From: Thermococcus kodakarensis KOD1
GTDB taxonomy: Archaea; Methanobacteriota_B; Thermococci; Thermococcales; Thermococcaceae
Reading direction: 5' to 3'
Length of the DNA stretch: 32,000 nt
Assembly (NCBI RefSeq): GCF_000009965.1
Contig: NC_006624.1
Location: forward strand, 600,001 to 632,000
Shown here: positions 5,863 through 32,000 of the stretch, one piece after another
Position numbering within the stretch: the first letter of the stretch is position 1
How the letters are laid out: the number at the start of each line of letters is the position of its first letter
Program-made: the position numbers and the translations under genes
Notes under the pieces: generated by a model
What the model was told of the DNA's origin: nothing
The model's database searches: none
What the model saw: only the letters and a program-made list of their open reading frames with translations

Positions 5863-6753
5863 TCAGCCGAGGATTTCCCTCTTTATAACCTCGGCAATCT
5901 CAACTATGGCCTTTGAAGCCTTGGCCTCTGGGAAGGCCTCGACAACGGGCTTCAGCATGCTCATGCTCTCTGGAACGGCTCTGTCGTAGGGTATTCTTCC
6001 CAGTATCGGTATTCCTTCTTTCTCAGCCCACTCCTCAAGGCCAGTGAAGCCGGGGTTGATGTCGGCTTTGTTGATGATGAGGTAGGCCGGCTCCCTGAAG
6101 TGCTGGACGACCTTGTAGGCCCTCTGAACGTCGCTGAGCGAAGCCGGGGTAGGCTCTGCTATGAGTATGGCAACGTCTGCCCCACCGAGGCTCGCTATCA
6201 CCTGACAGCCTATTCCAGCGGCCGAATCAACTATCATGTGCTCGAGGTTGAGCTCCTTCATCAGCTTCGCGGCCCACTCCTTCTCCTCCGTGACGAGCTT
6301 TCCGCTCTCGGGCCTTCCGACGTCGAGCTGGGCCGAGATGAGCGGGAAGCCGTACTTGGTTGTCGCCTTCCTGATTACCCCTGAGCGGACTTCCTCAAGG
6401 GTTATGGTTCCGGCCACCGGGCAGACCAGGCCACAGACGTTGCAGCCCTCGCAGGTGAGCTCGTTCACGACGTAGTTGCCTTCGTCATCGATGTAGATGC
6501 ACCCGTAGGGACAGCGCTCGTAGCAGATTCCGCACCTTACGCAGCTCTCTGTGTTTATCCTGGCTATCTTGGCACCTATATGCTCCCTCTCCTCTTCCCA
6601 CTCGGTCACGCCGAGGAGCAAACCAAGGTTCGGGGCCTCAGCGTCGGCGTCAACTGCCACAAACGAGTAATCGTCCTTCAGAAGGTAGAGGAGCGAGGCC
6701 GTTATCGTGCTCTTTCCAACGCCGCCCTTACCGCTCGCTATCGCCACCTGCAT
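5863..6753 (-). CDS. MinD/ParA-superfamily P-loop ATPase with inserted 2x[4Fe-4S] ferredoxin domain (COG1149-type), copy 2
   Basis: It has a deviant Walker A SGKGGVGKST and the cluster motifs CVRCGICYERCP and CEGCNVCGLVCP. The ATG at 6753 follows GGAGGTGG, and the start overlaps the stop of copy 1 (GTGATG). Confidence 0.85.
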   Translation of the reverse strand: MQVAIASGKGGVGKSTITASLLYLLKDDYSFVAVDADAEAPNLGLLLGVTEWEEEREHIGAKIARINTESCVRCGICYERCPYGCIYIDDEGNYVVNELTCEGCNVCGLVCPVAGTITLEEVRSGVIRKATTKYGFPLISAQLDVGRPESGKLVTEEKEWAAKLMKELNLEHMIVDSAAGIGCQVIASLGGADVAILIAEPTPASLSDVQRAYKVVQHFREPAYLIINKADINPGFTGLEEWAEKEGIPILGRIPYDRAVPESMSMLKPVVEAFPEAKASKAIVEIAEVIKREILG

Positions 6754-7625
6754 CACGCACCACCTCCAAGGAACTCGGCAACCCTTTCGGCGAGGCCTTT
6801 GAATATCTCTGCCTCGGGATAGTCCGTCAGGGCTATGGGTTTTCCCTCGACGTAACTTTTGACTATGTTCTCGCTGTAGGGGATCTCAGCCACGATTTCG
6901 GCGCCGTACTTCTCCGCCAGCTCCCTGACCTTACCAACGTCTCCGAGGTCAGACCTGTTCACCACAACCCAAGTCGGGATCTTCATCAGCTTCCCGAGCT
7001 GTAGGATAAGCTCCGTGTCGTGTATGCCGAGGGGAGTGGGTTCTGTTACCGCTATGAGGAGCTTTGAGCCTTCGACTGCTTTTGAGACCGTGTTTCCAGT
7101 TCCAGCGGCCGTGTCCACCATGAGGAGACCTTCCCTGACCTCTTCGGCCCTCTTCTTCGCCGCAACCACGAGCGGCATTGACCTCTCCTCTCCCTCCCTG
7201 AGCTTCCCCGTGACGAGCGTGAAGCCGTAGGGTGTTGGGGTAACGTACGTGTGGCCTATAACTCTGAAGGCCTCTTGAATGGCCCCTGGTACAGGACAGA
7301 CTATCTCACAGGCCCTGCAGCCGGAACAGAGGGTCGGCATGAGAAAGGGCGTCCCGTCCTTCAGCGTCACTATCGCGTGCTCCTCACACACCTCGGCGCA
7401 CTTCCTGCACTTGGTGCACTTCGAGTAGTCGAAGCGCGGCATGAACTGGTTCACGGGTTCTTCGTTGGCAAGCTCAACTCCCAGAAGTATGTGGTCGTTC
7501 GGTGCCTCGACGTCAAGATCCGCCAGAGTCAGCCTGACCCCAATCTTCCTGAGCGCCACCGCGAGGTTTGTCGCGACCGTTGATTTTCCGGTTCCGCCTT
7601 TTCCACCGCTCACCGCTATCTGCAA
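6753..7625 (-). CDS. MinD/ParA-superfamily P-loop ATPase with inserted 2x[4Fe-4S] ferredoxin domain (COG1149-type), copy 1
   Basis: It has Walker A SGGKGGTGKST and the cluster motifs CTKCRKCAEVCE and CSGCRACEIVCP. The ORF runs to 7685, but a TATA-like element and GGAGGTGA lie inside that extension. A TTG at 7625 gives MQIAVSGGKGG, which parallels the paralog's MQVAIASGKGG. Confidence 0.8.
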   Translation of the reverse strand: MQIAVSGGKGGTGKSTVATNLAVALRKIGVRLTLADLDVEAPNDHILLGVELANEEPVNQFMPRFDYSKCTKCRKCAEVCEEHAIVTLKDGTPFLMPTLCSGCRACEIVCPVPGAIQEAFRVIGHTYVTPTPYGFTLVTGKLREGEERSMPLVVAAKKRAEEVREGLLMVDTAAGTGNTVSKAVEGSKLLIAVTEPTPLGIHDTELILQLGKLMKIPTWVVVNRSDLGDVGKVRELAEKYGAEIVAEIPYSENIVKSYVEGKPIALTDYPEAEIFKGLAERVAEFLGGGA

Positions 7626-7642
7626 GCTCTCACCTCCGGAAA

Positions 7643-7684
7643 TTAGGGTAGCCGAATTGGTTATAAGCTTTGTGCATACGCTCA
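7643..7684 (-). promoter_or_regulatory. Internal promoter module: TGAGCGTATGCACA operator-like element, GCTTATAAC TATA box and TTCGGCTACCCTAA iron-box-like element
   Basis: Read on the minus strand it is TAATGAGCGTATGCACAAAGCTTATAACCAATTCGGCTACCCTAATTTCCGGAGGTGAGAGCTTG. The first 28 nt match the module at 31831 in 25 of 28 positions by my manual alignment. Confidence 0.6.
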
Positions 7685-8632
7685 TTACTCCCTGCTCTTC
7701 AGCCTCCTCATGTAGAACCTCTTCCCGTTGTACTCAAGCTCTATCAACTTCCCCTCTTTCAGGAGCTTCTCAACAATGCTCCAGTCTGCGTTTGCCTTCT
7801 CCAGAAACTCCGCAACGGCGTCCTCGCGCATTGGATGGACTGAGGTTATGCTCAGCAGATCCTCCTCAACGTTACCCGTAAAGGCGAAGGCGTTCCCCTC
7901 GTAGCCGATCAGGTATTCCACGCGCTCGTCCCCAAGGATTTCGCTGAAGACCTGATATGCGTGGTTGATGACATCTTCCTTCGCAGGTTTCACCCACGGT
8001 TCCGCCGGCGGTCTCGTTGGAACGGCTATGTAGGCTTTATCCGGTTTCAGCTCCCTCAGAAATTCCGCTATCTTCTCGAACTCGTTGCCATAGTCTATCC
8101 CGTCTATCAGCATCGTCTCGGTGACTATCTTTCCCTTGAACTCCTTCCTGAACTCCAGCATGCCCTCAAGGATCTTCTCAAGGCTCAGGCTCTTGTGGGG
8201 CCTGTCAATTCTCCTCCAGAGCGGCTCACTGACAGCATCAACTTTCAGCGAGACGAAGTCAAACTTCAGAAGGTCTTCCCTGACATCTTCTCTCCAGATG
8301 AGCGAGGAGTTAGTGAGGATAGCCGGGGGGATTTCAAGGGATTTCAAAAGCTCCGCCTCCTTCCCGAGGTTTATGTCGAGCGTGGGCTCTCCATCTGGAA
8401 CGAAGGTGATGTAGTCTATCCTCTCGCTCCTCGCGAGTGCCTCCTCGACTTTCTCCTTGACTTCTCTGAAGATCAGTTCGGGCTCGTAGAAGGGCCTCCT
8501 CTTGATTTCCATTCTGAGAGTTTTCCCTATCTGACAGTAAACGCAGGCGTAGGTGCATACCTTGTCGGGGATGTTGTTCACGCCGAGGCTCCTGCCGAGC
8601 CTCCTCGAGGGGACAGGTCCAAAGGCTATCAT
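7685..8632 (-). CDS. Radical SAM protein (NifB/MoaA-related Fe-S oxidoreductase type)
   Basis: The CxxxCxxC motif occurs in CTYACVYCQIG near the N-terminus. The 315-aa ORF has GGTGGTGGT upstream of its ATG. Confidence 0.8.
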   Translation of the reverse strand: MIAFGPVPSRRLGRSLGVNNIPDKVCTYACVYCQIGKTLRMEIKRRPFYEPELIFREVKEKVEEALARSERIDYITFVPDGEPTLDINLGKEAELLKSLEIPPAILTNSSLIWREDVREDLLKFDFVSLKVDAVSEPLWRRIDRPHKSLSLEKILEGMLEFRKEFKGKIVTETMLIDGIDYGNEFEKIAEFLRELKPDKAYIAVPTRPPAEPWVKPAKEDVINHAYQVFSEILGDERVEYLIGYEGNAFAFTGNVEEDLLSITSVHPMREDAVAEFLEKANADWSIVEKLLKEGKLIELEYNGKRFYMRRLKSRE

Positions 8633-11267: not shown

Positions 11268-11296
11268 TAGGTTCCCATCTTTGTCCGGTGGCTGTA

Positions 11297-12931
11297 ATGA
11301 AGAGGGCAGTTTCAGTTCTCATCCTCAGCCTTCTCCTTTTCGGGGTGATGGCCAGCGGGTGCATAGGGACGAAAACAACATCGAACACCTCAACAACCTC
11401 AAGCGGAGCAACAGCCACTTCTCCGACAGCCTCAAGCCAGTTATCCACCTCTACTGCATCCTCCAACGTTGTCCCGCTTACCCTCGTTGGGCCCGATGGC
11501 TCTGTTAAAACGCTAACCCTTTCAGACCTCAAGAGCCTCCCGCAGACGGTTGGAAAGGGCGGCCTGAAAACAAAGAAGGGGAGCATCAAGAGGATTGGAA
11601 CTTACAAGGGCGTTTCTTTGAAGGATTTGCTCTCAAAGTTCGGCTGGTTATCAAAGAACTACCGTTACGTAATAACTGCCGCCGATGGGTATTCAATAAC
11701 CGCTGACTACGGCTTCATATTTGGAAAGGGATTGGACACCTACGACGAAAAGGGGAACCCGATCAACGGCTCCGTGATTCCCATCCTCGCCTACGAGTAC
11801 AACGGGGAACCGATAGAATTCACCTTGGACGGTAAGGTGTATCCCCTCAAGCTCGTCCTCGTCGGGGACGAGACGATAGTAACCCCTGGGAACCGCTGGG
11901 TCAAGGCCGTTGTGAAAATAGAGGTTGTGAAGGCCGAAACACCGGGAGAAAGCGAGAACACTGGCTATGGGGAAGTGAAAGATTTTGCCAACAGAACCGT
12001 TAAGGTGAAGAGCCCGCCGGCGAGGATAGTCTCACTCTACGGACTGGTCACGCAAATGATATACTTTCTCGGAGTTGAGGACGGCAAGAAAGTCGTGGGA
12101 AGCACTCCGCTGGCAATAAACGACGCTTTTATCGGGCTTCTGGATCCTGGCGTTAAGAACAGGATGGTCTTCGTCGGAAACCCGAGGAATGCGAACGTTG
12201 AAACCGTCAAGTCCCTGAACCCGGACGTCGTTTTCACTGCCTACTGGGGGAGCGAAAAGATAAACGAGGAAATAGAGAGCCTTGGCATTCCAGTTATAGC
12301 CCTGAACCTTGAGACGGTCGATGGATACCTCAAGGGGCTCCTGACAGTGGGCAAAGTTCTTGGAAAGGAGGAAAAAGCAGAGAAGGCAATTTCGTATTAT
12401 CGCTCCGCTGTTGACTTCGTCACAAACAGGACATCAAAGCTTAAAGAGAGGCCCAGGGTTCTTCTCGTTCAGTACAGCATGAAGGATAAGGCGTTCAAAG
12501 CTCCAGGCAAGGAGTACTTCCAGAACAGATTAATAGAGATGGCAGGTGGGGAAAGCGTTTCCTCGAACCTTCCAGGTGGCTGGAACGTAGTGAACGTCGA
12601 GCAGGTCGCGAAGTGGAACCCAGATGTGATAATCGTCGTCAGCTACTCCCCCAAGAAACCATCGGCTAAGGTTAAGGAAGAAATACTAAACGACCCCGCG
12701 TGGAAGGGCATAAAGGCCGTTAAGGAGGGCAGGGTCTACGCGATGCCGAACGATGGCGAAAGCTGGGATTACCCCGCTCCAAAGTGGGTTCTCGGCCTCT
12801 ACTGGCTCGCCAAGGTTCTCCACCCGGAGCTCTTCGGCGACCTCGATGTCAGAGCCAAAGCCGACGACTTCTATCAGAAGTGGTACGGGATAGACCCAAA
12901 TAAGGTGGAGATAACCGGTGATATGCCGTGA
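11297..12931 (+). CDS. Lipoprotein: molybdopterin-oxidoreductase-like domain fused to an FhuD/BtuF-type (iron-chelate/cobalamin class) periplasmic binding domain
   Basis: The signal and lipobox are MKRAVSVLILSLLLFGVMASGC, followed by a Ser/Thr-rich linker. The N-domain pattern is TLSDLKSLP...YKGVSLKDLL...AADGYS...ILAYEYNGEP...PLKLV...RWVKAVVKIEV. The C-terminal part resembles class-8 binding proteins. The ATG at 11297 follows GGTGG; an alternative GTG is at 11288. Confidence 0.7.
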   Translation: MKRAVSVLILSLLLFGVMASGCIGTKTTSNTSTTSSGATATSPTASSQLSTSTASSNVVPLTLVGPDGSVKTLTLSDLKSLPQTVGKGGLKTKKGSIKRIGTYKGVSLKDLLSKFGWLSKNYRYVITAADGYSITADYGFIFGKGLDTYDEKGNPINGSVIPILAYEYNGEPIEFTLDGKVYPLKLVLVGDETIVTPGNRWVKAVVKIEVVKAETPGESENTGYGEVKDFANRTVKVKSPPARIVSLYGLVTQMIYFLGVEDGKKVVGSTPLAINDAFIGLLDPGVKNRMVFVGNPRNANVETVKSLNPDVVFTAYWGSEKINEEIESLGIPVIALNLETVDGYLKGLLTVGKVLGKEEKAEKAISYYRSAVDFVTNRTSKLKERPRVLLVQYSMKDKAFKAPGKEYFQNRLIEMAGGESVSSNLPGGWNVVNVEQVAKWNPDVIIVVSYSPKKPSAKVKEEILNDPAWKGIKAVKEGRVYAMPNDGESWDYPAPKWVLGLYWLAKVLHPELFGDLDVRAKADDFYQKWYGIDPNKVEITGDMP

Positions 12932-13875
12932 GGGGGCTTAAAGGCATCTTTCTTTTTTTCATGGTTATCATTCTGATATCGCCCTTCGTGGGTAGAATGC
13001 TCTTCAATCCGCTCTCGATGAGCGATCTCGATAAAACCATCCTCCTCCAGGTCAGACTCCCGAGGGTGGTTACTTCCCTCCTTGTCGGGGCTTCCCTTTC
13101 GCTTGCAGGTTTAACCTTCCAGAACGTCTTCAGGAACCCCCTGGCCGGGCCGAACCTCCTTGGGGTCACGAGCGGCTCGGCCTTCGGGGCGGTTCTGGCG
13201 ATACTCCTCTCTGCGGATCCTTACGTCATACAGATATCGGCCTTCCTCCTCGGCCTGCTTGCCGTTGGGGTGGTGTGGCGGCTTTCCCGCCTCGTTGGGA
13301 ACGGAATCCTCGGCTTAATTCTGGCCGGAATAGCGGTCTCGGCTTTCTTCTCCGCCCTCGTGGGAATGGCGAAGTATCTGGCCGATCCGTACGACAAACT
13401 GCCCGCGATAGTTTTCTGGCTCCTGGGAAGCTTCGCAGGCTTGCGGTGGGATGACGTGAGGATTATGCTGGTGCCACTCGTTGTGAGCATAGTTGGGATA
13501 ACGCTCCTCCGCTGGCCCCTGAACGTCATCAGCCTTAGTGAAGAGGAGGCTAGGGGGCTCGGAGTGAACGTGAGGCTCTACAGGGGGATTTTCATAGCCC
13601 TCGCCGCCCTCGGTGTTTCGGCATCGACGGCGATGGCTGGGATGATAAGCTGGGTTGGACTCGTGAGCCCCCACGTAGCCCGGCTGAGTGTTGGACACGA
13701 CACGAGAACGCTCGTCCCGGCAAGCGCCCTCGTTGGGGCGTCTCTTCTCCTAGTTTGTGACGACGTTGCGAGGAGCGTAACTACCTTTGAGGTTCCCCTG
13801 GGAGTCGTTACTGCCCTGATAGGCGCCCCGACCCTCATAATAATCCTGCGGAGGGGGATCTATGCTAAGGGTTGA
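12928..13875 (+). CDS. FecCD/BtuC-family ABC transporter permease
   Basis: 315-aa polytopic membrane protein with typical FecCD segments (LLVGASLSLAGLTFQNVFRNPLAGPNLLGVTSG, GLVSPH). It has a 4-nt overlap with the binding-protein gene. Confidence 0.85.
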   Translation: MRGLKGIFLFFMVIILISPFVGRMLFNPLSMSDLDKTILLQVRLPRVVTSLLVGASLSLAGLTFQNVFRNPLAGPNLLGVTSGSAFGAVLAILLSADPYVIQISAFLLGLLAVGVVWRLSRLVGNGILGLILAGIAVSAFFSALVGMAKYLADPYDKLPAIVFWLLGSFAGLRWDDVRIMLVPLVVSIVGITLLRWPLNVISLSEEEARGLGVNVRLYRGIFIALAALGVSASTAMAGMISWVGLVSPHVARLSVGHDTRTLVPASALVGASLLLVCDDVARSVTTFEVPLGVVTALIGAPTLIIILRRGIYAKG

Positions 13876-14623
13876 GGGGCTGGGCTTTTCATACGGCAGT
13901 AGGGAAGTCCTCAGGAACGTTACCTTTGAGCTTAAAAAGGGCGTTGGCTGTCTCCTTGGGCCAAACGGCGCCGGAAAAAGCACCCTCCTTAAGTGCATAG
14001 CCGGAATCCTCAATGGGAACGGTAGGATAACGCTCAACGGTACTGAGCTTTCCAGGTTGAGATTGAGGGAGCGTACGAGGCTCGTAAGCTACTCCCCCCA
14101 GGAATTCTCGCTGACGTTTCCGTACACGGTCTTTCAAACCGTGCTGATGGGCAGGAACCCCCACATCGACCCCCTGAGCGGGCCGGGAAAGGTGGACGAA
14201 GAGATGGCGATGAAGGCCCTCCGCACCCTCGGACTTGAGAACCTCGCGGAGAGACCCTTCGGCGAGCTCAGTGGAGGCCAGAAAAGGCTCGTAATGATAG
14301 CCAGAACGCTCGCGCAGGGTGGAGAGCTTTTCCTCTTTGACGAGCCCACTTCGTTCCTCGACTTCAGGAACCAGCACCTCGTTCTCAGCGTTATCAGGAA
14401 GCTCTCAAAGGAGAGAACAGTGCTGGTCTCACTCCACGATCCCAACCAGGCCCTGACCTTCTGCGATACGGTTTTCCTCCTGAAAGACGGGGGGATAATA
14501 GCGAGCGGAGAACCGGCTGAAGTTCTCAACGAGGAGAATCTGATGGAGTTATACAGGATGAAAGTGAAGCGGTTTAAGGCCGACGGCGGCTTTTTCATAT
14601 ACCCCCTGGAGGTGGTTGGATGA
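13862..14623 (+). CDS. ABC transporter ATP-binding protein (FepC/BtuD type)
   Basis: Walker A GPNGAGKSTLL, signature LSGGQKRLVMIA, Walker B LFLFDEPTSFLD and H-loop SLHD. Confidence 0.9.
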   Translation: MLRVEGLGFSYGSREVLRNVTFELKKGVGCLLGPNGAGKSTLLKCIAGILNGNGRITLNGTELSRLRLRERTRLVSYSPQEFSLTFPYTVFQTVLMGRNPHIDPLSGPGKVDEEMAMKALRTLGLENLAERPFGELSGGQKRLVMIARTLAQGGELFLFDEPTSFLDFRNQHLVLSVIRKLSKERTVLVSLHDPNQALTFCDTVFLLKDGGIIASGEPAEVLNEENLMELYRMKVKRFKADGGFFIYPLEVVG

Positions 14624-15381
14624 AAAAAGTCCTCTCCCTTCTGCTCGTCCTCATGGCATGCGGGTGCATCGGGGCTTCCGAAAAACAGACGCCCAGCAAT
14701 GTTTCAACACCAAGTTATTCAAAAATTTCAACCTATCCCTTGGGAAATCCTCCAAACTGGTCAAACTGGACACTAGCTGTTCTGAATGACAACAGAACCT
14801 ACACGTGGGAAGAACTCTCAAAACTATCGAACGACACGATGAGAATACCGGATTTGAACCTCGGAAGAACCGTCGAGTGGAGGGGAGTTAGACCTCAGAG
14901 ACTTGGAAGGGGAGACTTCGTTACGGTAATAAATGAAAACGGGGAAGTGGTGAGCATACCCTATAACGTCTCAATGCTTCTGGCCATCTACATGGACGGG
15001 AAGCCGATGTCAACCCCGATAAGGCTCGTGGCGAGTCTCTCCTACGGCTGCCGGTGCAACTGGCTTCCTGGAATAAGGTTAGTGGACTTCGTGAACCGCT
15101 CCAAGGCCTTGGGGGTCTACGGCGAGGTGAACAACGAACTCTGGCTGTCCCCAAGGAGCTTTGCCGCCCTTGGAAACGGCTCGGTGCACCTGAACGAACT
15201 GCTCGATAAAGCTGACGTTAGGCCAATCGCCAGGAGGGTGATCTTCATTACACCCAACGGGGAGCTTCCATACAGCCTCGCCAAGATAAAGAAGCTGAAC
15301 CCGTTGGTTGTTTTTGAGGGGAAGTTTAAAGTGCCCTCACTGGGTATAGAAGACCTAAGAGGAATAAGGCTTGAGGGGTGA
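14620..15381 (+). CDS. Secreted lipoprotein with molybdopterin-oxidoreductase-like domain, many N-x-S/T sequons
   Basis: The lipobox is MKKVLSLLLVLMACGC. The segment TWEELSKL...VEWRGVRPQRL...LLAIYMDGKPM...PIRLV...WLPGIRLVDFV parallels the N-domain of the 11297 protein. There is a 4-nt overlap with the ATPase gene. Confidence 0.6.
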   Translation: MKKVLSLLLVLMACGCIGASEKQTPSNVSTPSYSKISTYPLGNPPNWSNWTLAVLNDNRTYTWEELSKLSNDTMRIPDLNLGRTVEWRGVRPQRLGRGDFVTVINENGEVVSIPYNVSMLLAIYMDGKPMSTPIRLVASLSYGCRCNWLPGIRLVDFVNRSKALGVYGEVNNELWLSPRSFAALGNGSVHLNELLDKADVRPIARRVIFITPNGELPYSLAKIKKLNPLVVFEGKFKVPSLGIEDLRGIRLEG

Positions 15382-15385
15382 TTGA

Positions 15386-16123: not shown

Positions 16124-16633
16124 TTATTTTGCGAACCTCCCATCATCTTTTGCCTCTGGGAGCTTGTGAACGTTTTCTTCAAGCCAGCCTGTTCTCACTC
16201 CCTCTCTGTAGTCAAATTCTGGCACGTAGGGCTTTATATCCAGGAGGGGAGTTCCATCTAGGACATCAACATCCTCAACTATCAGGACGTTTCCGCGCCT
16301 TTCAACGAGTCTCACTATCGAGATGCCGATGGGATTCGGGCGCGCGGGTGCCCTCGTGGCGAACACGCCATGGTAGTTCTCGTCCATGTATGGCCTTACT
16401 AGGAGACTCTTGAACCTCGCCCTGTGGAAGTGGTAGATCAAAATTACGTGGGAGAATCCCTCAATGTCCTTCAGTCCTTCCTCAAACTCGGGAAACACAT
16501 CAACGGTTCCTCTGATTCCCCTCGCCGCAGAGGCCTGTATGGGGACGTCTTTTGGCTCCTTGAAGGGGCTGTGAATAACTCCAATCGGGCGATAGCATAT
16601 TTCTTCCAAAGGATAGCTTTTGGCCTTGCTCAT
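16124..16633 (-). CDS. trmO: TsaA/TrmO-like tRNA methyltransferase (YaeB/UPF0066 family)
   Basis: The segments IGVIHSPFK ... FSHVILIYHFH ... RPNPIGISIVRL ... DGTPLLDIKPY are typical of the TsaA-like domain. Confidence 0.7.
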   Translation of the reverse strand: MSKAKSYPLEEICYRPIGVIHSPFKEPKDVPIQASAARGIRGTVDVFPEFEEGLKDIEGFSHVILIYHFHRARFKSLLVRPYMDENYHGVFATRAPARPNPIGISIVRLVERRGNVLIVEDVDVLDGTPLLDIKPYVPEFDYREGVRTGWLEENVHKLPEAKDDGRFAK

Positions 16634-17436: not shown

Positions 17437-17883
17437 CTATGCTCTCACCTTAATCGGATTCTTTGAAACATCCTTAACAGGCAGGTAGGCTATTACTGAA
17501 AGCACCCCAAGGACGAGGTAAGTGGTCACGTCATCAAGTGGGCTCCAGCCAGCGAAGTCTTCGTTGTGAAGCAGGTACGCCTCTATTGCATCTGACCCCA
17601 TGACGAGCACCGCAATGAGTGCAAGGCCAATGCTCAGCAGTGCACCCACGTAGAGGTAGGAGACGCTCCTAAGGTCGCCCTCAACGGCCCTCTTGAGACC
17701 TGTTAGATAGACCGCGCTTATCGTGAAGAGGGCGAAGGCAGCGAAGAGGTCTCCAGTTGGAACTCCAATGACCTTGATCTCCTTTCCGAAGTAGGCGAGC
17801 ACCTCGATTATCCCACCGATGAGGTAGAGGAGGCCGAAGATCCCAGTCAGCCATTTCACCTGTCCAAGGTTTATTCTGCTCAT
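17437..17883 (-). CDS. Small polytopic membrane protein, translationally coupled to feoB
   Basis: The ORF extends to 18012, but that portion overlaps feoB. The ATG at 17883 (MSRINLGQVKWLTGIFGLLYL...) overlaps the feoB stop (ATGA). About four hydrophobic helices follow. Confidence 0.65.
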   Translation of the reverse strand: MSRINLGQVKWLTGIFGLLYLIGGIIEVLAYFGKEIKVIGVPTGDLFAAFALFTISAVYLTGLKRAVEGDLRSVSYLYVGALLSIGLALIAVLVMGSDAIEAYLLHNEDFAGWSPLDDVTTYLVLGVLSVIAYLPVKDVSKNPIKVRA

Positions 17884-19898
17884 AGGAACACACCCCCCAC
17901 CGCGACTATGAGCAGGGCCACTATGTACGCCAAGATCAGCTCGTAGGCCACCGCAAAGAGTGCCCACTTCCAGCCAGCTTCCTGCTTTATGACGGCTATA
18001 GTGGCAAGACACGGCACGTATATCAGCGAGAATGCCATGAACGCGTAGGCTGTTGCAGGGTTAAACGCTCCGCTCGCCGCCATTGCCTGTGAGATCGCCT
18101 GTTCATTATCCCCAACGCCGTAGAGTACTCCAAGTGTCCCGACCACGATCTCCTTGGCTATGAAGCCGAAGAACAGCGCCACCGCGGCCTTCCAGTCCCA
18201 GCCCATCGGCGCGAAGAGCGGCTGTAGGGCGTGCCCAAGCGAAGCCACCCAGGACTTTGCGAGCAGTTCTCCGTTCTCAAGGGCCTCTGAGCCGAGGTAT
18301 CCACTGGGTCCAGTCACTGAGAGCAGCCAGACCACGATGACGCCTGCGAAGATAACGGTTCCAGCCTTCCTGAGGAACTTCTCCGTCCTCGTCCAGGCAG
18401 TGCCAAAGATGGTTCCCCAGTTGGGCCTGTTGTATGGTGGGAGCTCCATCACGAAGTAGGAGGGCTCGCCCTTGAATATGAGCTTCCTGAAGAGCCAGGC
18501 TATGATGAGGGCGAACGCTATGCCGAGGAGGTACATGCTGGTGATTACCGTTCCTTCCCTCCCGGCGAAGAACGCTCCGGCGAAGACGGCGTATATCGGC
18601 AGCCTCGCTGGACAAGACATCAGCGGGTTCACGAGTATCGTTAGAATTCTGTCCTTCTCGTCTTCAAGGGTTCTCGTTGCCATTATTGCCGGGACGTTGC
18701 ATCCAAAGCCCATTATCATCGGGATCACGGACTTTCCATGGAGGCCGAAGTGGTGCATTACCCTGTCCATGACAAAGGCGGCCCTCGCCATGTACCCGCT
18801 GTCCTCCAGCCACGAGAACGCTAAGAACAGGAACGCTATCGGCGGCAGGAACACCAGGACGCTCCCGAGGCCGCCTATGATGCCGTCCCTGAGGAGAGAG
18901 GCTAGAGCGTCGTTCGCAACGTGTGCCCCGACTTCATCCCCGAGCCAGCTGAAGAACCAGTCTATAATATCGCTGAAGGGCGCCGAAACGTCGAAGGTGA
19001 ACTTGAAGACGGCCCACATAAGGCTGATGAAGATTGGGACTCCGAGGTATTTGTGGGTGAGAACCTCGTCCAGCATGTCGCTGAAGGTTATCCTATCCTC
19101 TTTCTTCACGATGGCCCGCTTGGCTATCTCCTCTATCAGGCCGTAGCGCTCATCCGCCAGTGCGAGCTCAACGTCCCCGTATTTCTTGTGGAGCTCTCCC
19201 GAGACGTTTATAAGCTCCCTCAGGATATCGTCCCTTAATCTGCTTTTCTCGACTATCCCCCTGGCCTCGTCATCGCCTTCGAGGAGTTTTATGGCGAGCC
19301 ACCTCGGGTTATAATTCCTTACCAGCTCGTCGTCCCGTTCGATGACCCTCATGATGCGCTCGATATAGGCTTCAAAGTTCGGGTACTCGATGGGGCGCGG
19401 CTTTCCCTTGATGGCTTCGACTATTTTTGCCTTGAGCTCCTCGATTCCCTTTCCTTCAGAGGCGACCATCGGAACTACTGGAACCCCAAGGGCCTCCTCC
19501 AGCTTCTTCGGGTCTATTTTGTAGCCCTTCTCTTCCGCGAGGTCCATCTTGTTCAGGGCCACCACGACGTTGGCTCCAATCTCGAGGAGCTGGAGCGTGA
19601 GGTAGAGGTTGCGCTCAAGGTTGGATGCATCGACGATGTCAACGACCACTCTGGGCTTCTCCTTCACTATGAAGTCCCTCGCTATCTTCTCATCAATGGA
19701 ATAGGCGGTTAGGCCGTATACACCCGGAAGATCAACGACCCTGAACTTCATCTCCTTGTATTCAAACTCTCCCTCCTTCTTCTCGACGGTAACGCCCGGC
19801 CAGTTGCCCACGTGCTGTCTAAGGCCGGTTAATGCGTTGAAGAGGGTAGTTTTACCCGCGTTTGGGTTTCCTATCAGGGCGATCACGACTTCACTCAT
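17880..19898 (-). CDS. feoB: Ferrous iron transporter FeoB
   Basis: The N-terminal G-domain has GNPNAGKTTLFNALTG, DLPG and NKMD. A large polytopic membrane domain follows. 672 aa. Confidence 0.95.
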   Translation of the reverse strand: MSEVVIALIGNPNAGKTTLFNALTGLRQHVGNWPGVTVEKKEGEFEYKEMKFRVVDLPGVYGLTAYSIDEKIARDFIVKEKPRVVVDIVDASNLERNLYLTLQLLEIGANVVVALNKMDLAEEKGYKIDPKKLEEALGVPVVPMVASEGKGIEELKAKIVEAIKGKPRPIEYPNFEAYIERIMRVIERDDELVRNYNPRWLAIKLLEGDDEARGIVEKSRLRDDILRELINVSGELHKKYGDVELALADERYGLIEEIAKRAIVKKEDRITFSDMLDEVLTHKYLGVPIFISLMWAVFKFTFDVSAPFSDIIDWFFSWLGDEVGAHVANDALASLLRDGIIGGLGSVLVFLPPIAFLFLAFSWLEDSGYMARAAFVMDRVMHHFGLHGKSVIPMIMGFGCNVPAIMATRTLEDEKDRILTILVNPLMSCPARLPIYAVFAGAFFAGREGTVITSMYLLGIAFALIIAWLFRKLIFKGEPSYFVMELPPYNRPNWGTIFGTAWTRTEKFLRKAGTVIFAGVIVVWLLSVTGPSGYLGSEALENGELLAKSWVASLGHALQPLFAPMGWDWKAAVALFFGFIAKEIVVGTLGVLYGVGDNEQAISQAMAASGAFNPATAYAFMAFSLIYVPCLATIAVIKQEAGWKWALFAVAYELILAYIVALLIVAVGGVFL

Positions 19899-20122
19899 CC
19901 TATCACCTCCACCTGAATCTTCATCGCCAGCCCCCTTCCGAGGGCGAGCTGTGTTCCCCTAACGGTTACCATCATCGGACCGGCCATTTGGTTCCTGACC
20001 ACGACTACCTCAGTGCCGGGCGACAGTCCGAGCTCCGCCAGCCTGTGGATTACTCCCCTTCCCCCGGCGATTCCCCTTATGACAGCCCTTCTGCCCTCTT
20101 CCACGAATGCCAGGGGCATCAT
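19895..20122 (-). CDS. feoA: FeoA-family protein
   Basis: 75-aa small SH3-like FeoA pattern (RLAELGLSPGTEVVVV...GPMMV). It overlaps the feoB start by 4 nt. Confidence 0.85.
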   Translation of the reverse strand: MMPLAFVEEGRRAVIRGIAGGRGVIHRLAELGLSPGTEVVVVRNQMAGPMMVTVRGTQLALGRGLAMKIQVEVIG

Positions 20123-20335
20123 TCACTCCACCTCTACGTAGTCCGCCTCTTCCTTCCGAAGTGAGAGCTTGTAGCCGCGAACCTCGACCTCTATCGGGTC
20201 GCCGAGCGGTGCCCTCTTCACGACCTTTACTACAGCTCCTGGAGTCACGCCCATAGTCAGAAGACGGGCCTTTGGGCCGCCCCTAATGCCCACGACCCTT
20301 ACGGTTCTTCCGGGTTCAACTTCGCTGAGCCTCAT
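20123..20335 (-). CDS. feoA: FeoA-family protein (second copy)
   Basis: The sequence reads MRLSEVEPGRTVRVVGI...RLLTMGVTPGAVVKVV...GDPIEVEVRG. The ATG at 20335 follows GGGGGTGG. The ORF-track start at 20353 is less likely. Confidence 0.8.
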   Translation of the reverse strand: MRLSEVEPGRTVRVVGIRGGPKARLLTMGVTPGAVVKVVKRAPLGDPIEVEVRGYKLSLRKEEADYVEVE

Positions 20336-20370
20336 TCTACCACCCCCATGCACAATTGCGTATATCGTGC

Positions 20371-20384: not shown

Positions 20385-20389
20385 CAACT

Positions 20390-20609: not shown

Positions 20610-20623
20610 CGTGCATATGCACG
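20610..20623. promoter_or_regulatory. Perfect 14-bp palindrome CGTGCATATGCACG, followed by GCTTAAAAGC (TATA-like)
   Basis: It has the same GTGCATATGCAC core as 25229-25242 and is related to 31834-31847 and 7671-7684. It lies about 150 nt upstream of the modA start. Confidence 0.5.
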
Positions 20624-23820: not shown

Positions 23821-24360
23821 TCATCGAGCTCTGATTTCAAGGAACTCAACGAGGAGGTTAAAGAACCGCGTGGTTCTCCCCAAGGGAGTTATAAAGCGGT
23901 AGACCAGCAGTTCCTCCCGGATTTCTTCTCTCTGGAACTCCTTTGGTAGGCCATCAAACTTTCCGCTTCTTGAGAGCTCTTTTACAACCCTCCAGCCATC
24001 GGAAAAGAGCGCGTTGAAGTACTCCTTCAGCCACTTCTCGTCGATTCTCCTTACGAAGAGCTCCCCCTCCCTTGACAAGCGGTAGTAGGTGTGGTGCTTG
24101 TGGACTTCGAAGGCCTTCTTGAACCTCGCCTTACTTCTCTTTATCGCACTTCCAGAGTCTCGCTCCACCAGTCCAGCTTCCATCAGATCTCTTATTGCAT
24201 CTTCGATGAGAGAAAGGGGTAGCTCGCTCATTTTCACCATCATCTTGGCGTAATCCACTCCGGCTTTCTTAAGGTGGGCCAGGACGTAGAGGTGAACCGG
24301 AAGGAGTTCAAGGCCTCGGTACGAACCTGGGCGTTCTTTCTGCGTATTCCCTCCATCCAT
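23821..24360 (-). CDS. Winged-helix DNA-binding protein (DUF2250-like) with C-terminal extension
   Basis: The sequence HLYVLAHLKKAGVDYAKMMVKMSELPLSLIEDAIRDLMEAGLVERDSGSAIKR...EVHKHHTYYRLSREGE looks like a wHTH. The start is uncertain because there is a 53-nt overlap with the upstream gene. Confidence 0.55.
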   Translation of the reverse strand: MDGGNTQKERPGSYRGLELLPVHLYVLAHLKKAGVDYAKMMVKMSELPLSLIEDAIRDLMEAGLVERDSGSAIKRSKARFKKAFEVHKHHTYYRLSREGELFVRRIDEKWLKEYFNALFSDGWRVVKELSRSGKFDGLPKEFQREEIREELLVYRFITPLGRTTRFFNLLVEFLEIRAR

Positions 24361-24745
24361 CGCCGAACATCTCCTCGAGGGCTTTCTCCTCCTCGCCTAT
24401 GAACCCGAGCACGCCCGCCCAGTAAACGAGAGGAAGTAAGAGCATGAAGCCACCGAAGAGGAGAGAGAATCCCGGAATCACGAGAAAGCCCCAGATGGAG
24501 TATATCGGATGCCTCACCCTTGAGTAGCAGCCCTCCGTGAGCAGTTTCCCCTTCGAGTAAGCCCTTGAGACCTGAAGGTAGCAGAGAAACCAGAGGGAGA
24601 GGCCGAGGAATACCATCAGGAACCCAAGGACTGGAAACGCGAGAAAGCTAACCCCAAGCCTCTCGTCTAGGTAAAACGCCAGAACCGCATAGATGGAAGA
24701 AAGGAGGGCAACCTTTGGAAAGATGCCCCAGAACTTCATGTTCAC
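24308..24745 (-). CDS. Membrane methyltransferase of the ICMT/PEMT-like family
   Basis: It has four hydrophobic helices. The segments SRVRHPIYS and EEKALEEMFGDGWREYAERTPRFVP fit the isoprenylcysteine carboxyl methyltransferase-like pattern. A GTG start overlaps the upstream stop (GTGA); an alternative ATG lies two codons in. Confidence 0.65.
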   Translation of the reverse strand: MNMKFWGIFPKVALLSSIYAVLAFYLDERLGVSFLAFPVLGFLMVFLGLSLWFLCYLQVSRAYSKGKLLTEGCYSRVRHPIYSIWGFLVIPGFSLLFGGFMLLLPLVYWAGVLGFIGEEEKALEEMFGDGWREYAERTPRFVPRP

Positions 24746-25161
24746 TCCTCTATCGGCGGTTTTTCGGTCTTCTTTTTCTGCACCTGCTCCCAGAGGTCGT
24801 CGAAGTTCTCCACGACCCGCTGGAGTGCAAGGTTTAGATCCCTCGTCCTCGTGAAGAATGCCACCTTGTTGGTCTTGTCCCGGATTCTCAGGAAGTTCGG
24901 GCCCATCCTGAAAGCTGCTAAAACGTCAACGTCGAGGAGCTGGCTGACGACTGCCTTGAACTTCCTCGGGTCGCCGTGCCCCTCGTCGTGTTCTTCCTCT
25001 ATGTCTTTAGCCTTGTTGTGCCTCTTTTCGAGGAGTTTTATGCTTCCATCCTCGCAGATTTCGTAGATCGCGAAGAACTCTGAATCACCGTAGTGTGCAT
25101 CTATGAGGTGTTCATCATCTTCCATTCCGAACGCGACTTTGAGGCATCTCTTCTCAGCCAT
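24742..25161 (-). CDS. NifX/NifB-C-terminal-like (dinitrogenase FeMo-cofactor-binding fold) protein, paralog 1
   Basis: The sequence LKVAFGMEDDEHLIDAHYGDSEFFAIYEI...VDVLAAFRMGPN fits the family pattern. The ORF extends to 25212, but a TATA box (CTTATAAAAC) and AGGTGA lie inside it. The start is the ATG at 25161 (or 25167). Confidence 0.6.
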   Translation of the reverse strand: MAEKRCLKVAFGMEDDEHLIDAHYGDSEFFAIYEICEDGSIKLLEKRHNKAKDIEEEHDEGHGDPRKFKAVVSQLLDVDVLAAFRMGPNFLRIRDKTNKVAFFTRTRDLNLALQRVVENFDDLWEQVQKKKTEKPPIEE

Positions 25162-25202
25162 GAGCATCACCTGAAATTCCTTCGGTAGGGGTTTTATAAG
25201 GA

Positions 25203-25216
25203 TTAGGCTCACCGAA
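25203..25216. promoter_or_regulatory. Iron-box-like element TTAGGCTCACCGAA in the divergent NifX-like promoter region
   Basis: It follows the TTAGG-N4-CC(T/G)AA pattern. The minus-strand reading TTCGGTGAGCCTAA resembles 7643-7656 (TTCGGCTACCCTAA). Confidence 0.45.
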
Positions 25217-25228
25217 AACTTTAAATGC

Positions 25229-25242
25229 TGTGCATATGCACA
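25229..25242. promoter_or_regulatory. Perfect 14-bp palindrome TGTGCATATGCACA between divergent NifX-like genes
   Basis: It is flanked by TTTAAAT (25220-25226). It is 33 nt upstream of the ATG at 25275 and 68 nt upstream of the ATG at 25161 on the other strand. Confidence 0.6.
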
Positions 25243-25274: not shown

Positions 25275-25898
25275 ATGAGGATCGCTGTCCCGACTAACGG
25301 TGGAGGTAGAGAAGACACGGTCGCCCCGGTCTTCGCGAGGGCACCGGCATTTTACATAGCGGACGTTGACGAGAACGGGAACATCGTCAGCGAGAAGGTC
25401 ATTCAGAACAGCGCCGCAATGGCCGGCGGAGGGGCCGGACCAATGGCAGTCCAGACCCTCATCAACGAGGGCGTTGAGGCAATAATAGCTCCTCAGGTCG
25501 GCCCGAACGCACTCGGTGCCATACAGGCCGCTGGTATCAGGCTCTACCAGGTCGCTCCAGGGACACCAGTGGAGGAGGCCATAAAGAGCGTCGTGAGCGG
25601 TGAAGCGGCCCAGTTCACGGCACCCGCTCCGCAGGCTCCCGTCGCTCCAGCGGCCCCTGCAACTCCGGTAGCACCGGTGCCGCCAGCGTACGGCCCAGCC
25701 TACCCGGCTTATCCTGCCTACGGCTACGGTTTCGGCCCTGGTTGGGGCAGAGGCTGGGGCCGCGGATGGGGTAGAGGACGCGGCTTCGGCAGAGGTTGGG
25801 GCAGAGGAGGAAGAGGCTGGGGAGCGAGGCTCGGCTACTGCCCGTGGACAGGAATGCCCAGCAGGAGAACCCTCCGCCGGTATTACGGCTGGTGGTGA
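25275..25898 (+). CDS. NifX/NifB-C-terminal-like domain fused to a Pro/Ala linker and a GW/RG-repeat tail
   Basis: The ATG at 25275 follows GGAGGTGG. The N-domain reads MRIAVPTNGGG...VAPVFARAPAFYIADVDENG...EAIIAPQVGPNALGAIQAAGIRLYQ. The tail reads APAPQAPVAPAAPATPVAPVPPAYGPAYPAYPAYGYGFGPGWGRGWGRGWGRGRGFGRGWGRGGRGWG...LGYCPWTG...RRYYGWW. Confidence 0.8.
   Translation: MRIAVPTNGGGREDTVAPVFARAPAFYIADVDENGNIVSEKVIQNSAAMAGGGAGPMAVQTLINEGVEAIIAPQVGPNALGAIQAAGIRLYQVAPGTPVEEAIKSVVSGEAAQFTAPAPQAPVAPAAPATPVAPVPPAYGPAYPAYPAYGYGFGPGWGRGWGRGWGRGRGFGRGWGRGGRGWGARLGYCPWTGMPSRRTLRRYYGWW
25740..25823 (+). repeat. Coding micro-repeat (GGN-TGG-GGN-MGN units) specifying GWGRGWGRGWGRGRGFGRGWGRGGRGWG
   Basis: Read directly: GGTTGGGGCAGAGGCTGGGGCCGCGGATGGGGTAGAGGACGCGGCTTCGGCAGAGGTTGGGGCAGAGGAGGAAGAGGCTGGGGA. 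Confidence 0.85.
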
Positions 25899-25931: not shown

Positions 25932-26177
25932 ATGCCGCGCGGTTACGGAAGGGGTATGGGCAGGGGTGGAAGATTCGGCCCGTATCCACCCTATTATGGA
26001 GGCTTCTTCGGCCGTTTTGGACTCTACGGAATAATAGACCTAATCTTCCTGCTCCTGATCCTCTACCTGCTCTTCAAGCTCTTCCTAGTGGCTGCGACCT
26101 ATGTTATAGCCCTCGTGGTGCTCTACATGCTCTGGGGCTTCATAAGTCCGAGGAGAGGCCGCTGGTTCTGGCCTTAG
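25932..26177 (+). CDS. Small membrane protein with MPRG-type RG/aromatic-rich N-terminus (DUF5320-like flavour) and two TM helices
   Basis: The ATG at 25932 follows GAGGTG. The sequence is MPRGYGRGMGRGGRFGPYPPYYGGFFGRF, then the hydrophobic IIDLIFLLLILYLLFKLFLVAATYVIALVVLYMLWGF, then the tail RRGRWFWP. Confidence 0.6.
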   Translation: MPRGYGRGMGRGGRFGPYPPYYGGFFGRFGLYGIIDLIFLLLILYLLFKLFLVAATYVIALVVLYMLWGFISPRRGRWFWP

Positions 26178-31768: not shown

Positions 31769-31833
31769 TCGCTCACCTCCGTGGGTAACGTTGATGGGAC
31801 GTTTTTTAAGCATTTTGGAACAGACTTGTGTAA

Positions 31834-31872
31834 TGAGCATATGCACAAGGCTTTTAACTTAGGCTTTCCTAA
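31834..31872 (+). promoter_or_regulatory. Promoter module: TGAGCATATGCACA operator-like element, GCTTTTAAC TATA box and TTAGGCTTTCCTAA iron-box-like element (31859-31872)
   Basis: The sequence is TAATGAGCATATGCACAAGGCTTTTAACTTAGGCTTTCCTAACTCCGATGGAGGTGAAGGACATG. It is a twin of the 7643-7684 module. Its box and downstream part also resemble the radical-SAM promoter (TTAGGCTAACCTAACTCCGGTGGTGGT). Confidence 0.6.
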
Positions 31873-31892
31873 CTCCGATGGAGGTGAAGGAC

Positions 31893-32000
31893 ATGAGGAT
31901 AATCGTATCAACCGTTACCGGAGGGCTCGACGACAGGGTGAACCCGGCCTTTGGAAGAACGCCGACGTTCACGATCGTGGACGTTGAGAACGGAGAGATA
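31893..32000 (+). CDS. NifX/NifB-C-terminal-like protein, paralog 3 (5' part only; runs off window)
   Basis: The ATG at 31893 follows GGAGGTGA. My own translation is MRIIVSTVTGGLDDRVNPAFGRTPTFTIVDVENGEI, which parallels the 25275 protein. This ORF is not in the supplied track because it is open-ended. Confidence 0.7.
   Translation, partial: MRIIVSTVTGGLDDRVNPAFGRTPTFTIVDVENGEI

Follow-up and report, generated by a model that had tools for sequence, protein, structure and literature searches.

An iron box and a second palindrome mark five promoter regions in a metal-gene-rich stretch of Thermococcus kodakarensis

Described systems closest to the locus

The closest described relatives of the promoter elements reported here are the operators of the DtxR/IdeR iron regulators (C. 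diphtheriae DtxR, PF0851, TK0107). The DNA in question is a window of 32,000 nucleotides from Thermococcus kodakarensis KOD1 (NC_006624.1 positions 600,001 to 632,000, genes TK0696–TK0732; a window coordinate is the NC_006624.1 coordinate minus 600,000), in which two operators, an iron box and a second, unrelated palindrome, mark five promoter regions. Judged by sequence, the iron box belongs to an already known type of element, the classical operator of DtxR/IdeR: it shows the same TTAGG-N4-CCTAA dyad at the TATA box or transcription start site (TSS) of ferrous-iron uptake genes, and its sites match TTAGGTTAGCCTAACCTAA, which we take to be the DtxR/IdeR palindromic operator, with the 14-bp core TTAGG-N4-CCTAA. 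The copy at 20469, TTAGGTTAGCCTAATCTAA, is identical to the classical DtxR 19-mer at 18 of 19 positions. Leyn and Rodionov are said to have reconstructed the archaeal DtxR regulon in 2015. According to secondary accounts, archaeal DtxR regulons have already been reconstructed by comparative genomics, DtxR is the functional iron regulator of Thermococcales (TK0107 in KOD1, PF0851 in P. furiosus) and Fur is cryptic. Unlike DtxR/IdeR operators elsewhere, most boxes here are paired with the second operator across a TATA box, and the targets are iron-sulfur (Fe-S) storage and handling genes rather than importers alone.

IssA (SipA) of P. furiosus combines a NifX-type domain with a cationic Gly/Trp/Arg tail, keeps iron together with sulfur in the form of thioferrate, as a storage protein, and is produced only if both iron and sulfide are plentiful. 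TK0724, which a previous sequence-only reading of the window had called an uncharacterised RG-tail NifX-like protein, is on sequence comparison the orthologue of this characterised storage protein: its identity is 61% to the 179-residue PF2025, with 100% of the query covered, and 60% to PAP_06520, and it matches PF02579 at E 4.8e-21 and ends in the tail GWGRGWGRGWGRGRGFGRGWGRGGRGWG. With the P. furiosus IssA/SipA-SipB system it shares domain, tail and a strong, rapid induction by elemental sulfur (S0), and the issA promoter of P. furiosus has this box-TATA-palindrome element too. Published work on IssA covers the protein and its physiology, and no description of a cis-element or regulator was found there; one paper ascribes the sulfur response generally to SurR, the motif of which (GTTn3AAC) is absent from the five promoter regions.

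A second relative is the ORP complex of Desulfovibrio vulgaris, which comprises the MinD-ferredoxin ATPases Orp3 and Orp4, the NifX-like proteins Orp5 and Orp8, and MrpORP, and which is under sigma-54, IHF and the Fe-S-sensing activator OrpR. TK0701 and TK0702 resemble Orp3/Orp4, compared by described architecture, in being paired MinD/ParA ATPases with an inserted 2x[4Fe-4S] ferredoxin; they match CbiA/ParA and Fer4 domains, with Fer4 at residues ~65–135. The core of the window is accordingly not wholly uncharacterised, as had been proposed. As in the ORP system, such pairs are anaerobe-specific and in three compared loci (L082, L084 and L172) are divergent from small Nitro_FeMo-Co proteins across one control region; in the window, by contrast, 17 kb separate the MinD-ferredoxin unit from the Nitro_FeMo-Co unit, and both have a copy of the element to themselves. 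Unlike the ORP system, there is no sigma-54 or enhancer-binding protein, the promoters being archaeal ones built from a B recognition element (BRE) and TATA box with DtxR and DUF134-type sites, and a fused MrpORP is absent: what matches the MrpORP model does so weakly and in part, at 60 bits where the cut-off is 450.

The bacterial regulators IscR, SufR and RirA, which integrate cluster status, do an analogous job, adjusting genes for the assembly and storage of Fe-S to the demand for it and to the supply of iron. However, they belong to unrelated families, and the Thermococcales DUF134 proteins examined, which are discussed below as candidate binders of the palindrome, have no cysteines, which makes a cluster-ligating sensor of the IscR type unlikely. 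Archaeal repressors that act by occlusion (SurR, TrmB/TrmBL1 and Phr) likewise abut or overlap the BRE and TATA box or sit between TATA and TSS, so that position predicts the sign of regulation. Unlike these, two different operators here sandwich one TATA box, and they do so in both orientations, including a ~70-bp bidirectional region. While the iron box, IssA and the ORP-like architecture were already known, the palindrome, its TATA-sandwich pairing with the iron box, and its link across phyla with DUF134 and DUF5320 are apparently new; no description of the palindrome 12-mer was found in the relevant literature searched.

Operators, promoters and sulfur response

One question is whether the metal-handling genes of the window form one coordinated unit. 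The sequence-only reading had taken about 26 kb as a single iron plus tungsten and molybdenum (W/Mo) cofactor economy locus sharing both operators. The interpretation that we favour, with fair though not strong confidence, is that only five promoter regions (rSAM/TK0704, MinD-ferredoxin, feoAAB, NifX1/issA and NifX3, rSAM denoting the radical SAM gene TK0703) share a code of DtxR box plus palindrome, the latter read by DUF134, and that the coordinated unit is a small S0- and iron-responsive regulon for Fe-S storage and handling. Its members would be issA-sipB, two more IssA-family NifX-like genes, the MinD-ferredoxin pair with the rSAM gene, and feoAAB, the last arranged otherwise: its distal promoter has the palindrome, and its iron boxes are in the leader and at the proximal promoter.

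The two motifs are true promoter elements, and their enrichment is strong; to this extent the sequence-only reading was correct. The iron box TTAGGN4CCKAA is present exactly at six positions (Table 1) against 0.09 expected from dinucleotide shuffles, and the seventh box, which differs at one position, lies at 20395 rather than at 20390 as first placed. A position weight matrix trained solely on boxes from other genomes recovered these seven and no others, with scores of 15.6–21.6 against 7.7 or less for the next independent match, and all seven fall in the non-coding DNA that makes up ~6% of the window. The GCATAYGC core of the palindrome occurs four times, at 7674, 20613, 25232 and 31837, against 0.49 expected, and all four palindromes likewise lie in non-coding DNA; the positions originally given for them are the starts of the 14-mer TGTGCATATGCACA. 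The palindrome is TTGTGCATATGCACAA. As background, 116,934 bases of sufC-anchored Thermococcus DNA contain one iron box and no palindrome, and neither motif occurs in the next 9 kb of KOD1 past the window.

The geometry of the sites was measured against the TSSs published in the KOD1 primary-transcriptome tables (PMC4247193). NifX1 and issA share a single iron box between them, which occupies -47..-34 relative to the issA TSS and -44..-31 relative to that of NifX1; the issA TATA box flanks it on one side and the NifX1 TATA box on the opposite side. The CCGAA half-site of this box probably doubles as the issA BRE, and the palindrome between the issA TATA box and TSS is in a repressor position. 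Iron boxes are in a repressing position at TK0732 (-22..-9) and, in tandem, 3' of the proximal feoA TATA box. The box also stands alone, with no palindrome, at the rSAM and proximal feoA promoters; at the former it lies 5' of the TK0704 TATA box, and when the same TATA box is read toward TK0703 it lies just 3'. The distal feoA palindrome, in turn, has no iron box beside it, while three boxes lie in the 257-nt leader and proximal promoter. Since the palindrome is 5' of the mapped TSS at the issA, TK0732 and distal feoA promoters, it acts as DNA and not as RNA.

The response to sulfur was taken from differential RNA sequencing (dRNA-seq) of KOD1 20 min after addition of S0 to a pyruvate culture (Pexp versus PS, PMC4247193); these libraries are single and semi-quantitative, and are therefore supportive rather than conclusive. 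Eight genes rose, namely TK0701 (3.5-fold), TK0702 (1.8), TK0703 (4.5), TK0722 (2.6), TK0723 (1.8), TK0724 (30.2), TK0725 (5.8) and TK0732 (2.9), and these are all the genes of the four operator-controlled NifX/IssA, MinD-ferredoxin and rSAM units. The other 25 window genes stayed at 0.41–1.72. This complete separation has a Mann-Whitney p of 1.5e-5 by gene and 0.002 by transcription unit. The expectation that the genes of the window would respond together was thus borne out for the eight operator-linked genes and failed for the other 25, feoB included. Related species offer a parallel: among the five genes that S0 induces most in Pa. pacificus are two NifX-type genes (SipA at 75-fold) and a CobQ/MinD-ferredoxin pair, which make up four of the five; in T. 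onnurineus both SipA and SipB go up; and feoAB is up on S0 in three species, Pa. pacificus among them.

The composite element recurs 17 times in 11 Thermococcales sequences covering all three genera, including P. furiosus issA (PF2025), Pa. pacificus sipA (PAP_06520) and T. barophilus. The two operators are 11–19 nt apart, mostly 12–16, and the spacer is just the TATA box. In the issA-type promoters of KOD1, P. furiosus, Pa. pacificus and three further loci (L009, L082 and L084) the order is box(CCGAA), 3 nt, TATA, 2 to 4 nt, TGTGCATATGCACA; the order is the same in the T. barophilus issA promoter (L174), where the box has a single mismatch. Beside the TATA box, the CCGAA half-site, which is invariant, would act as a BRE of the CGAAA type. 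The genomes of T. onnurineus-like strains, Palaeococcus and P. furiosus have the MinD-ferredoxin pair and a NifX-family gene (NifX1 in L082 and L084, issA in the P. furiosus locus L172) in divergent orientation across ~70 bp, where Shine-Dalgarno (SD) sequence, iron box, TATA, palindrome and start follow in that order. KOD1 has these units 17 kb apart, each with a copy of the element (7643–7684 and 25203–25242), and judging from this arrangement it evidently split an ancestral divergent module of which both halves retained the control region. The palindrome at 7671 is a relic of that shared MinD-ferredoxin/NifX1 region.

Candidate binders, rival explanations and a proposed mechanism

What protein would bind the palindrome? 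In several Thermococcales, issA or NifX1 has a DUF134/UPF0251 gene (Pfam DUF134, sigma-70 region-4-like) no more than ~8 kb away, and a metagenome search anchored on the DUF134 alignment gave 80 loci with 448 kb of DNA. The 14-mer, allowing two mismatches, occurs 47 times in these loci against 1.4 in shuffles, and 44 of the 47 sites are in loci whose DUF134 protein is only 51–65% identical to that of Thermococcus; iron boxes there number two. Among the 63 distant loci, 30 have the palindrome and 38 encode an IssA-type domain within 4 kb. Fifty-six of 65 palindrome sites are 5' of DUF134, IssA-like, MinD/Mrp, rSAM or DUF5320-type genes at a median distance of 19.5 nt, the genes 3' of the palindrome being DUF134 (15), IssA-like (7), MinD/Mrp (3), rSAM (1) and small RG/W-rich proteins, many of them DUF5320 (38). 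Near DUF134 the enriched form is TGTGC-N4-GCACA. In Baldrarchaeia (L089), copies matching at 15/16 and 14/16 positions follow the TATA boxes of a DUF5320-Fe_dep_repr_C-DUF134 operon and a NifX-ParA operon, and in a Bathyarchaeia genome GTGC-N4-GCAC follows a TATA box between DUF134 and DUF5320-NifX.

The DUF134 protein itself has a recognition helix (SRGTVWR...SARKK) that is invariant across phyla in the alignment, and its AlphaFold model shows a three-helix core with predicted local distance difference test (pLDDT) scores of 89–96 and a root-mean-square deviation of 0.5–1.0 Å to ECF sigma region 4. Its N-terminus is predicted to be disordered and is rich in Arg, Gly and Trp, as in MPMGMGRGWGKGRGRRRK (L082 16341–16697, L084 7199–7540, L175 6001–6354). 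Taken together, these comparisons point to DUF134/UPF0251 as most probably the regulator at the palindrome. No functional description of the family was found in the literature searched.

The palindrome could be genuine and yet be bound by another regulator, namely a DtxR paralogue, the DUF2250 winged-helix protein TK0721, the HTH_10 protein TK0697 or SurR, and we regard this as unlikely while giving it some weight. DUF2250 is encoded directly 3' of NifX1 in KOD1, L009 and L082, an Fe_dep_repr_C protein is encoded in the palindrome-preceded L089 operon, one paper has SurR up-regulating iron and Fe-S genes on S0, and DUF134 as the binder is a prediction. However, DUF2250 and HTH_10 homologues occur in none of the 80 DUF134 loci, although the palindrome is in 30 of the 63 distant ones; an Fe_dep_repr_C homologue occurs in only one of the 80, and the L089 copy has no helix-turn-helix (HTH) domain match; the SurR motif is in none of the five promoter regions; and TK0721 is not S0-induced. 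DUF2250, HTH_10 and SurR are disfavoured as binders on these grounds.

An alternative hypothesis, the original one, treats all 26 kb as a single locus for an iron plus W/Mo cofactor economy, where both operators would co-regulate the transporters, sufCB and NifX-like cofactor carriers. Its description of the gene content was sound: Pfam, NCBIfam and published locus tags agree on two MinD/ParA-ferredoxin ATPases, one radical SAM protein, a Peripla_BP_2/FecCD/ABC importer, FeoA-FeoA-FeoB, ModABC (ModA above the threshold of the modA model) with a ModD-like fragment, three Nitro_FeMo-Co proteins and SufCB, and metal-related genes are truly dense in the window. Several of the same families also re-cluster in Palaeococcus, where DUF134, methyltransferase, MinD-ferredoxin, NifX1, TrmO, DUF364, rSAM, IssA and SufB genes lie within 20 kb, and in Baldrarchaeia, where TrmO, NifX and ParA are together. 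Nevertheless, the operators are shared by the NifX-like, MinD-ferredoxin, radical-SAM and RG-tail genes and feoAAB, and not by modABC, the chelate importer or sufCB. The modA gene has its own TATA box and its own TSS (20762), TK0706 has a TSS at 11287, and neither has an operator nearby; the sufC promoter, too, is its own. After S0, modABC stood at 1.72/0.93/0.73, TK0706-08 at 1.14/0.75/0.86, sufB at 0.90, sufC at 1.30 and feoB at 1.05, and data from a histone mutant show modABC-TK0720 moving as a unit by itself. The 20610 palindrome was ruled out as a modA (W/Mo) operator, since it lies at -12..-1 of the minus-strand feoA TSS. Nothing ties the operators to W or Mo, and the NifX-like proteins do not carry such a link either: at 26.5 bits against a cut-off of 112 they fail the NifX equivalog TIGR02663, and on these sequence matches they are members of the IssA family and not Mo-cofactor carriers.

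At the far end of the window, sufCB was rejected as an operator target, the apparent start codon ATGCTTAAAAAA being a BRE/TATA conserved from Thermococcus to DHVE2, and the operator pair near sufC belongs to TK0732 by the mapped TSS 31881. In eight of nine Thermococcus relatives the sufC promoter, there with a co-directional upstream neighbour, lacks both motifs; a divergent NifX3 with the operator pair beside sufC is common only to KOD1 and its closest relative. Unrelated genes (GAPN, TrmO, MBL, an ABC-2 exporter, a PQQ propeller and methyltransferases) are scattered among the metal genes, and the 26-kb order is not conserved even in that closest relative, which reads NifX3-sufCB-SipB-IssA-NifX1-ICMT-DUF2250-MBL with no feo, mod or ABC-2 genes between; elsewhere the same families re-cluster in other orders. 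A single 26-kb locus has therefore become very unlikely and is largely refuted already by the TSS map and expression data.

It is least likely of all, and highly improbable, that the palindrome merely extends the DtxR operator, or is a core-promoter or initiator element, specific to the lineage, that paralogous promoters share through duplication: the promoters at 7672 and 31835 are near-identical over ~30 nt, which suggests duplication, and both motifs are always close together in Thermococcales, but the palindrome has no iron box at the distal feoA promoter, iron boxes stand alone at the rSAM and proximal feoA promoters, distant archaea have 44 palindromes against two boxes, the perfect 16-bp dyad kept across phyla is typical of a dimeric transcription factor, and the position relative to the TSS varies (-12..-1, -20..-9, -46..-35, -69..-58) in a way incompatible with a fixed core-promoter element.

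Returning to the favoured interpretation, that five promoter regions share an iron box and a DUF134-read palindrome, several points weigh against it. The binders of both operators are predictions. The metagenome loci were chosen for DUF134, so that co-location with DUF134 is partly by construction; motif enrichment and the identity of the downstream genes are independent of that selection. The DUF134 gene was found in the close relative KS-1 and many Thermococcales and is not confirmed for KOD1, where it would lie outside the window, by synteny with KS-1 (L175) probably close to PTPS and Alba genes, and, unlike in distant archaea, no palindrome was seen 5' of DUF134 in the Thermococcales examined; an autoregulatory palindrome there was accordingly dropped. 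The Baldrarchaeia operon co-encodes a protein with a DtxR C-terminal domain, which could contribute. At the promoter level, the 7671 palindrome is degenerate and the published map shows no TSS for TK0702, and a T. barophilus-like NifX1 promoter has an iron box and no palindrome. As to sulfur, TK0724 alone is significant singly (p 0.039, no other gene reaching p<0.05), and feoAAB, though operator-bearing, did not respond 20 min after S0 in KOD1; it is nearly silent in these iron-replete libraries, with feoA almost without reads. Finally, TK0704 is expressed and S0-unresponsive although its box is at -47..-34, as at issA, and for this reason the iron box may not repress issA.

From the motifs, TSS positions, conservation, S0 co-induction and DUF134 association given above, we infer the binders, the sign of regulation and the ligand as follows. 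The iron box would be bound by the Fe2+-loaded DtxR homologue TK0107 and the palindrome by the second protein, such that two proteins would occupy both flanks of one TATA box and block recruitment of TFB/TBP or RNA polymerase. One operator would be on the BRE side and the other on the TATA-to-TSS side, the assignment being set by the direction of transcription, and a ~40-bp element could thereby serve divergent genes. Reduction of S0 to sulfide while iron is present would yield iron sulfide, free Fe2+ would drop and DtxR would leave its box; the increase of feoAB on S0 would be explained in this way as well. A signal from Fe-S, or one derived from sulfide, would take the palindrome-binding protein off the DNA. 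If both releases are needed, expression would occur only with iron and sulfide together, as reported for SipA/IssA. A more daring version, which we hold to be doubtful, is that DUF134 is a pan-archaeal sensor and regulator for inorganic iron sulfide. Its disordered cationic Arg/Gly/Trp N-terminus shares the chemistry of the thioferrate-binding IssA tail and of the DUF5320 proteins that it would control; this tail would directly bind anionic Fe-S species and free the protein from TTGTGCATATGCACAA. Combined with DtxR at one TATA box in Thermococcales, it would make an iron AND sulfide gate for the storage of Fe-S mineral.

Neighbouring features and biological meaning

The coordinates of the operators, promoters and genes are collected in Table 1.

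Table 1. Operators, core-promoter elements and associated genes, in window coordinates
Feature	Coordinates	Strand	Position or remark
TK0701 + TK0702	5863..7625	-	MinD/ParA P-loop ATPase pair, inserted 2x[4Fe-4S] ferredoxin domain
Iron box TTAGGGTAGCCGAA	7643..7656	.	Between TATA and SD/TTG start of TK0702
TATA-like GCTTATAA	7661..7668	-	Internal promoter for TK0702-TK0701
Degenerate palindrome TGTGCATACGCTCA	7671..7684	.	2 mismatches; 3 nt 5' of TK0702 TATA, overlaps TK0703 stop
TK0703, radical SAM protein	7685..8632	-	Subfamily unassigned; orthologues with own iron box in L083, L084
Iron box TTAGGTTAGCCTAA	8646..8659	.	Divergent TK0703/TK0704 region; -47..-34 of TK0704 TSS 8693
TK0714-TK0716, feoB-feoA-feoA	17880..20353	-	Ferrous iron transporter operon
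Iron box TTAGGTATCCCTAA	20371..20384	.	Proximal feoA (TK0716) promoter, second of tandem 3' of TATA
Iron box variant GTAGGCTAACCTAA	20395..20408	.	One mismatch; first of tandem, 6 nt 3' of proximal feoA TATA
Iron box TTAGGTTAGCCTAATCTAA	20469..20487	.	+129..+142, leader of distal feoA transcript
Palindrome CGTGCATATGCACG	20610..20623	.	12-bp core exact, 2 mismatches in flanks; -12..-1 of distal feoA TSS 20610 (-)
Distal feoA TATA TTTTAAG	20633-20639	-	-29..-23 of TSS 20610
TK0722, ICMT/PEMT-like membrane protein	24308..24739	-	Directly 3' of NifX1, start overlaps
TK0723, NifX1 (Nitro_FeMo-Co)	24742..25167	-	Conserved across Thermococcales; TSS 25172
TK0723/NifX1 TATA TTATAAAA	25192..25199	-	-27..-20 of TSS 25172
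Iron box TTAGGCTCACCGAA	25203..25216	.	Between divergent TATAs of TK0723 and TK0724
issA TATA TTTAAAT	25220..25226	+	-30..-24 of TSS 25250
Palindrome TGTGCATATGCACA	25229..25242	.	Exact; -21..-8 of issA TSS 25250 (12-bp core -20..-9)
TK0724, IssA/SipA orthologue	25275..25898	+	Nitro_FeMo-Co domain, Pro-rich linker, cationic GWGRG tail
TK0725, small membrane protein	25932..26177	+	RG-rich N-terminus, SipB position
Palindrome TGAGCATATGCACA	31834..31847	.	1 mismatch; ~-47..-34 of TK0732 TSS (core -46..-35), abuts BRE
TK0732 TATA CTTTTAA	31851..31857	+	-30..-24 of TSS 31881
Iron box TTAGGCTTTCCTAA	31859..31872	.	-22..-9 of TK0732 TSS, repressor position
TK0732, NifX3 (Nitro_FeMo-Co)	31893..32000	+	Cut by window end; reaches genome position 632357

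Several observations concern the operator-bearing genes themselves. The RefSeq start of TK0702 is at 7685, and the annotated extension spans the iron box, TATA box and palindrome; an SD sequence GGAGGTG with TTG at 7625 gives the N-terminus (M)QIAVSGGKGGTGKS, which is conserved in orthologues, and the RefSeq start is probably 20 codons too long. The sole TSS assigned to TK0703 in the published map is at 8894 on the minus strand, 262 nt before the start codon, inside and antisense to TK0704, and none was detected at the iron-box promoter itself. A search for the TK0703 subfamily gave generic or far sub-threshold matches only and no informative PDB relative; against a tungsten-cofactor rSAM maturase it scored E 1e-4 and 21 bits against a cut-off of 380. 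The distal feoA TSS at 20610 is mapped, yet hardly any reads fall within the gene, which suggests a roadblock or attenuation at the iron boxes of the leader. The feoA-modA spacer (window 20354–20770) contains GTTTGAAA three times at ~20441–20570; no convincing small open reading frame was found in its 416 bp, and no Rfam match anywhere in the window.

Other observations touch relatives of these genes. A palindrome-like TGTGCAAATGCTCA lies inside the issA coding region ~170–215 nt from the start in Pa. pacificus (L173 10174) and T. barophilus (L174 6216), and a site of this type is absent from TK0724. In P. furiosus COM1 (L172 4084–5836) gene calling breaks the MinD-ferredoxin genes that diverge from issA into five short pieces, which suggests decay of the ORP-like pair in that strain or gene-calling artefacts, and an IS605-type transposase lies just 3' of issA. 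Around DUF134, the Thermococcales neighbourhoods (L092–L108) are rich in iron boxes, with 17 in 89 kb; in KS-1 an iron box (L175 6441) is found 87 nt 3' of the DUF134 gene in an unannotated 1-kb gap; and a gene of the PTPS (6-pyruvoyl-tetrahydropterin synthase) family is repeatedly divergent from DUF134 or near it. The DUF134 N-terminus resembles the IssA tail and the DUF5320 and RG-rich proteins encoded 3' of the palindrome. At L089 7255–8426, between the DUF5320 gene and DUF134 of the palindrome-preceded operon, is an Fe_dep_repr_C-only protein with no detected HTH, which could be an iron-sensing partner for DUF134.

The remaining observations concern neighbours. TK0705 is GAPN. TK0706-08 are annotated as an Fe(III) ABC transporter, TK0714-16 as feoB/feoA/feoA and TK0717-19 as a molybdate ABC transporter. 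The operon TK0706-TK0710 (window 11288–16123) lacks an iron box, shows good expression in rich medium and gives no S0 response, which makes the iron-siderophore label doubtful. In TK0706, labelled an 'Fe(III)' binding protein, Peripla_BP_2 is fused to an Oxidored_molyb-like region (E 3e-7) at the N-terminus, TK0709 matches the Oxidored_molyb-like domain weakly, and TK0710 is DUF364/DUF4213 ('heavy-metal chelation'). TK0711 (16124–16633) is a TrmO_N-domain gene, and TrmO_N genes recur near NifX-like genes in Thermococcus, Palaeococcus and a Baldrarchaeia genome (L083 9127–9621, L084 10635–11153, L089 9232–10026); the protein may be tied functionally to the IssA/ORP-like module and not be merely a tRNA methyltransferase. 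The sufC promoter (window 31790–31830, minus strand; L001–L018) has a conserved element, TTCACATCTGTGTCCAGAAATGCTTAAAAA, from Thermococcus to DHVE2/Aciduliprofundum, and the CACA-N2-TGTG dyad just 5' of its BRE may be a separate sufCB operator.

The modABC genes, the TK0706-10 importer and sufCB are thus neighbours of the regulon and not members of it. The two-operator design offers a concrete, testable answer to how issA is regulated, in a genetically tractable organism, and it names a candidate regulator from DUF134/UPF0251, a family without assigned function that is widespread in anaerobic archaea. It would also link the function-less DUF5320 and RG-rich small proteins to iron-sulfur storage, and the elements may furnish compact sulfur- and iron-responsive promoter modules for engineering Thermococcus and Pyrococcus.

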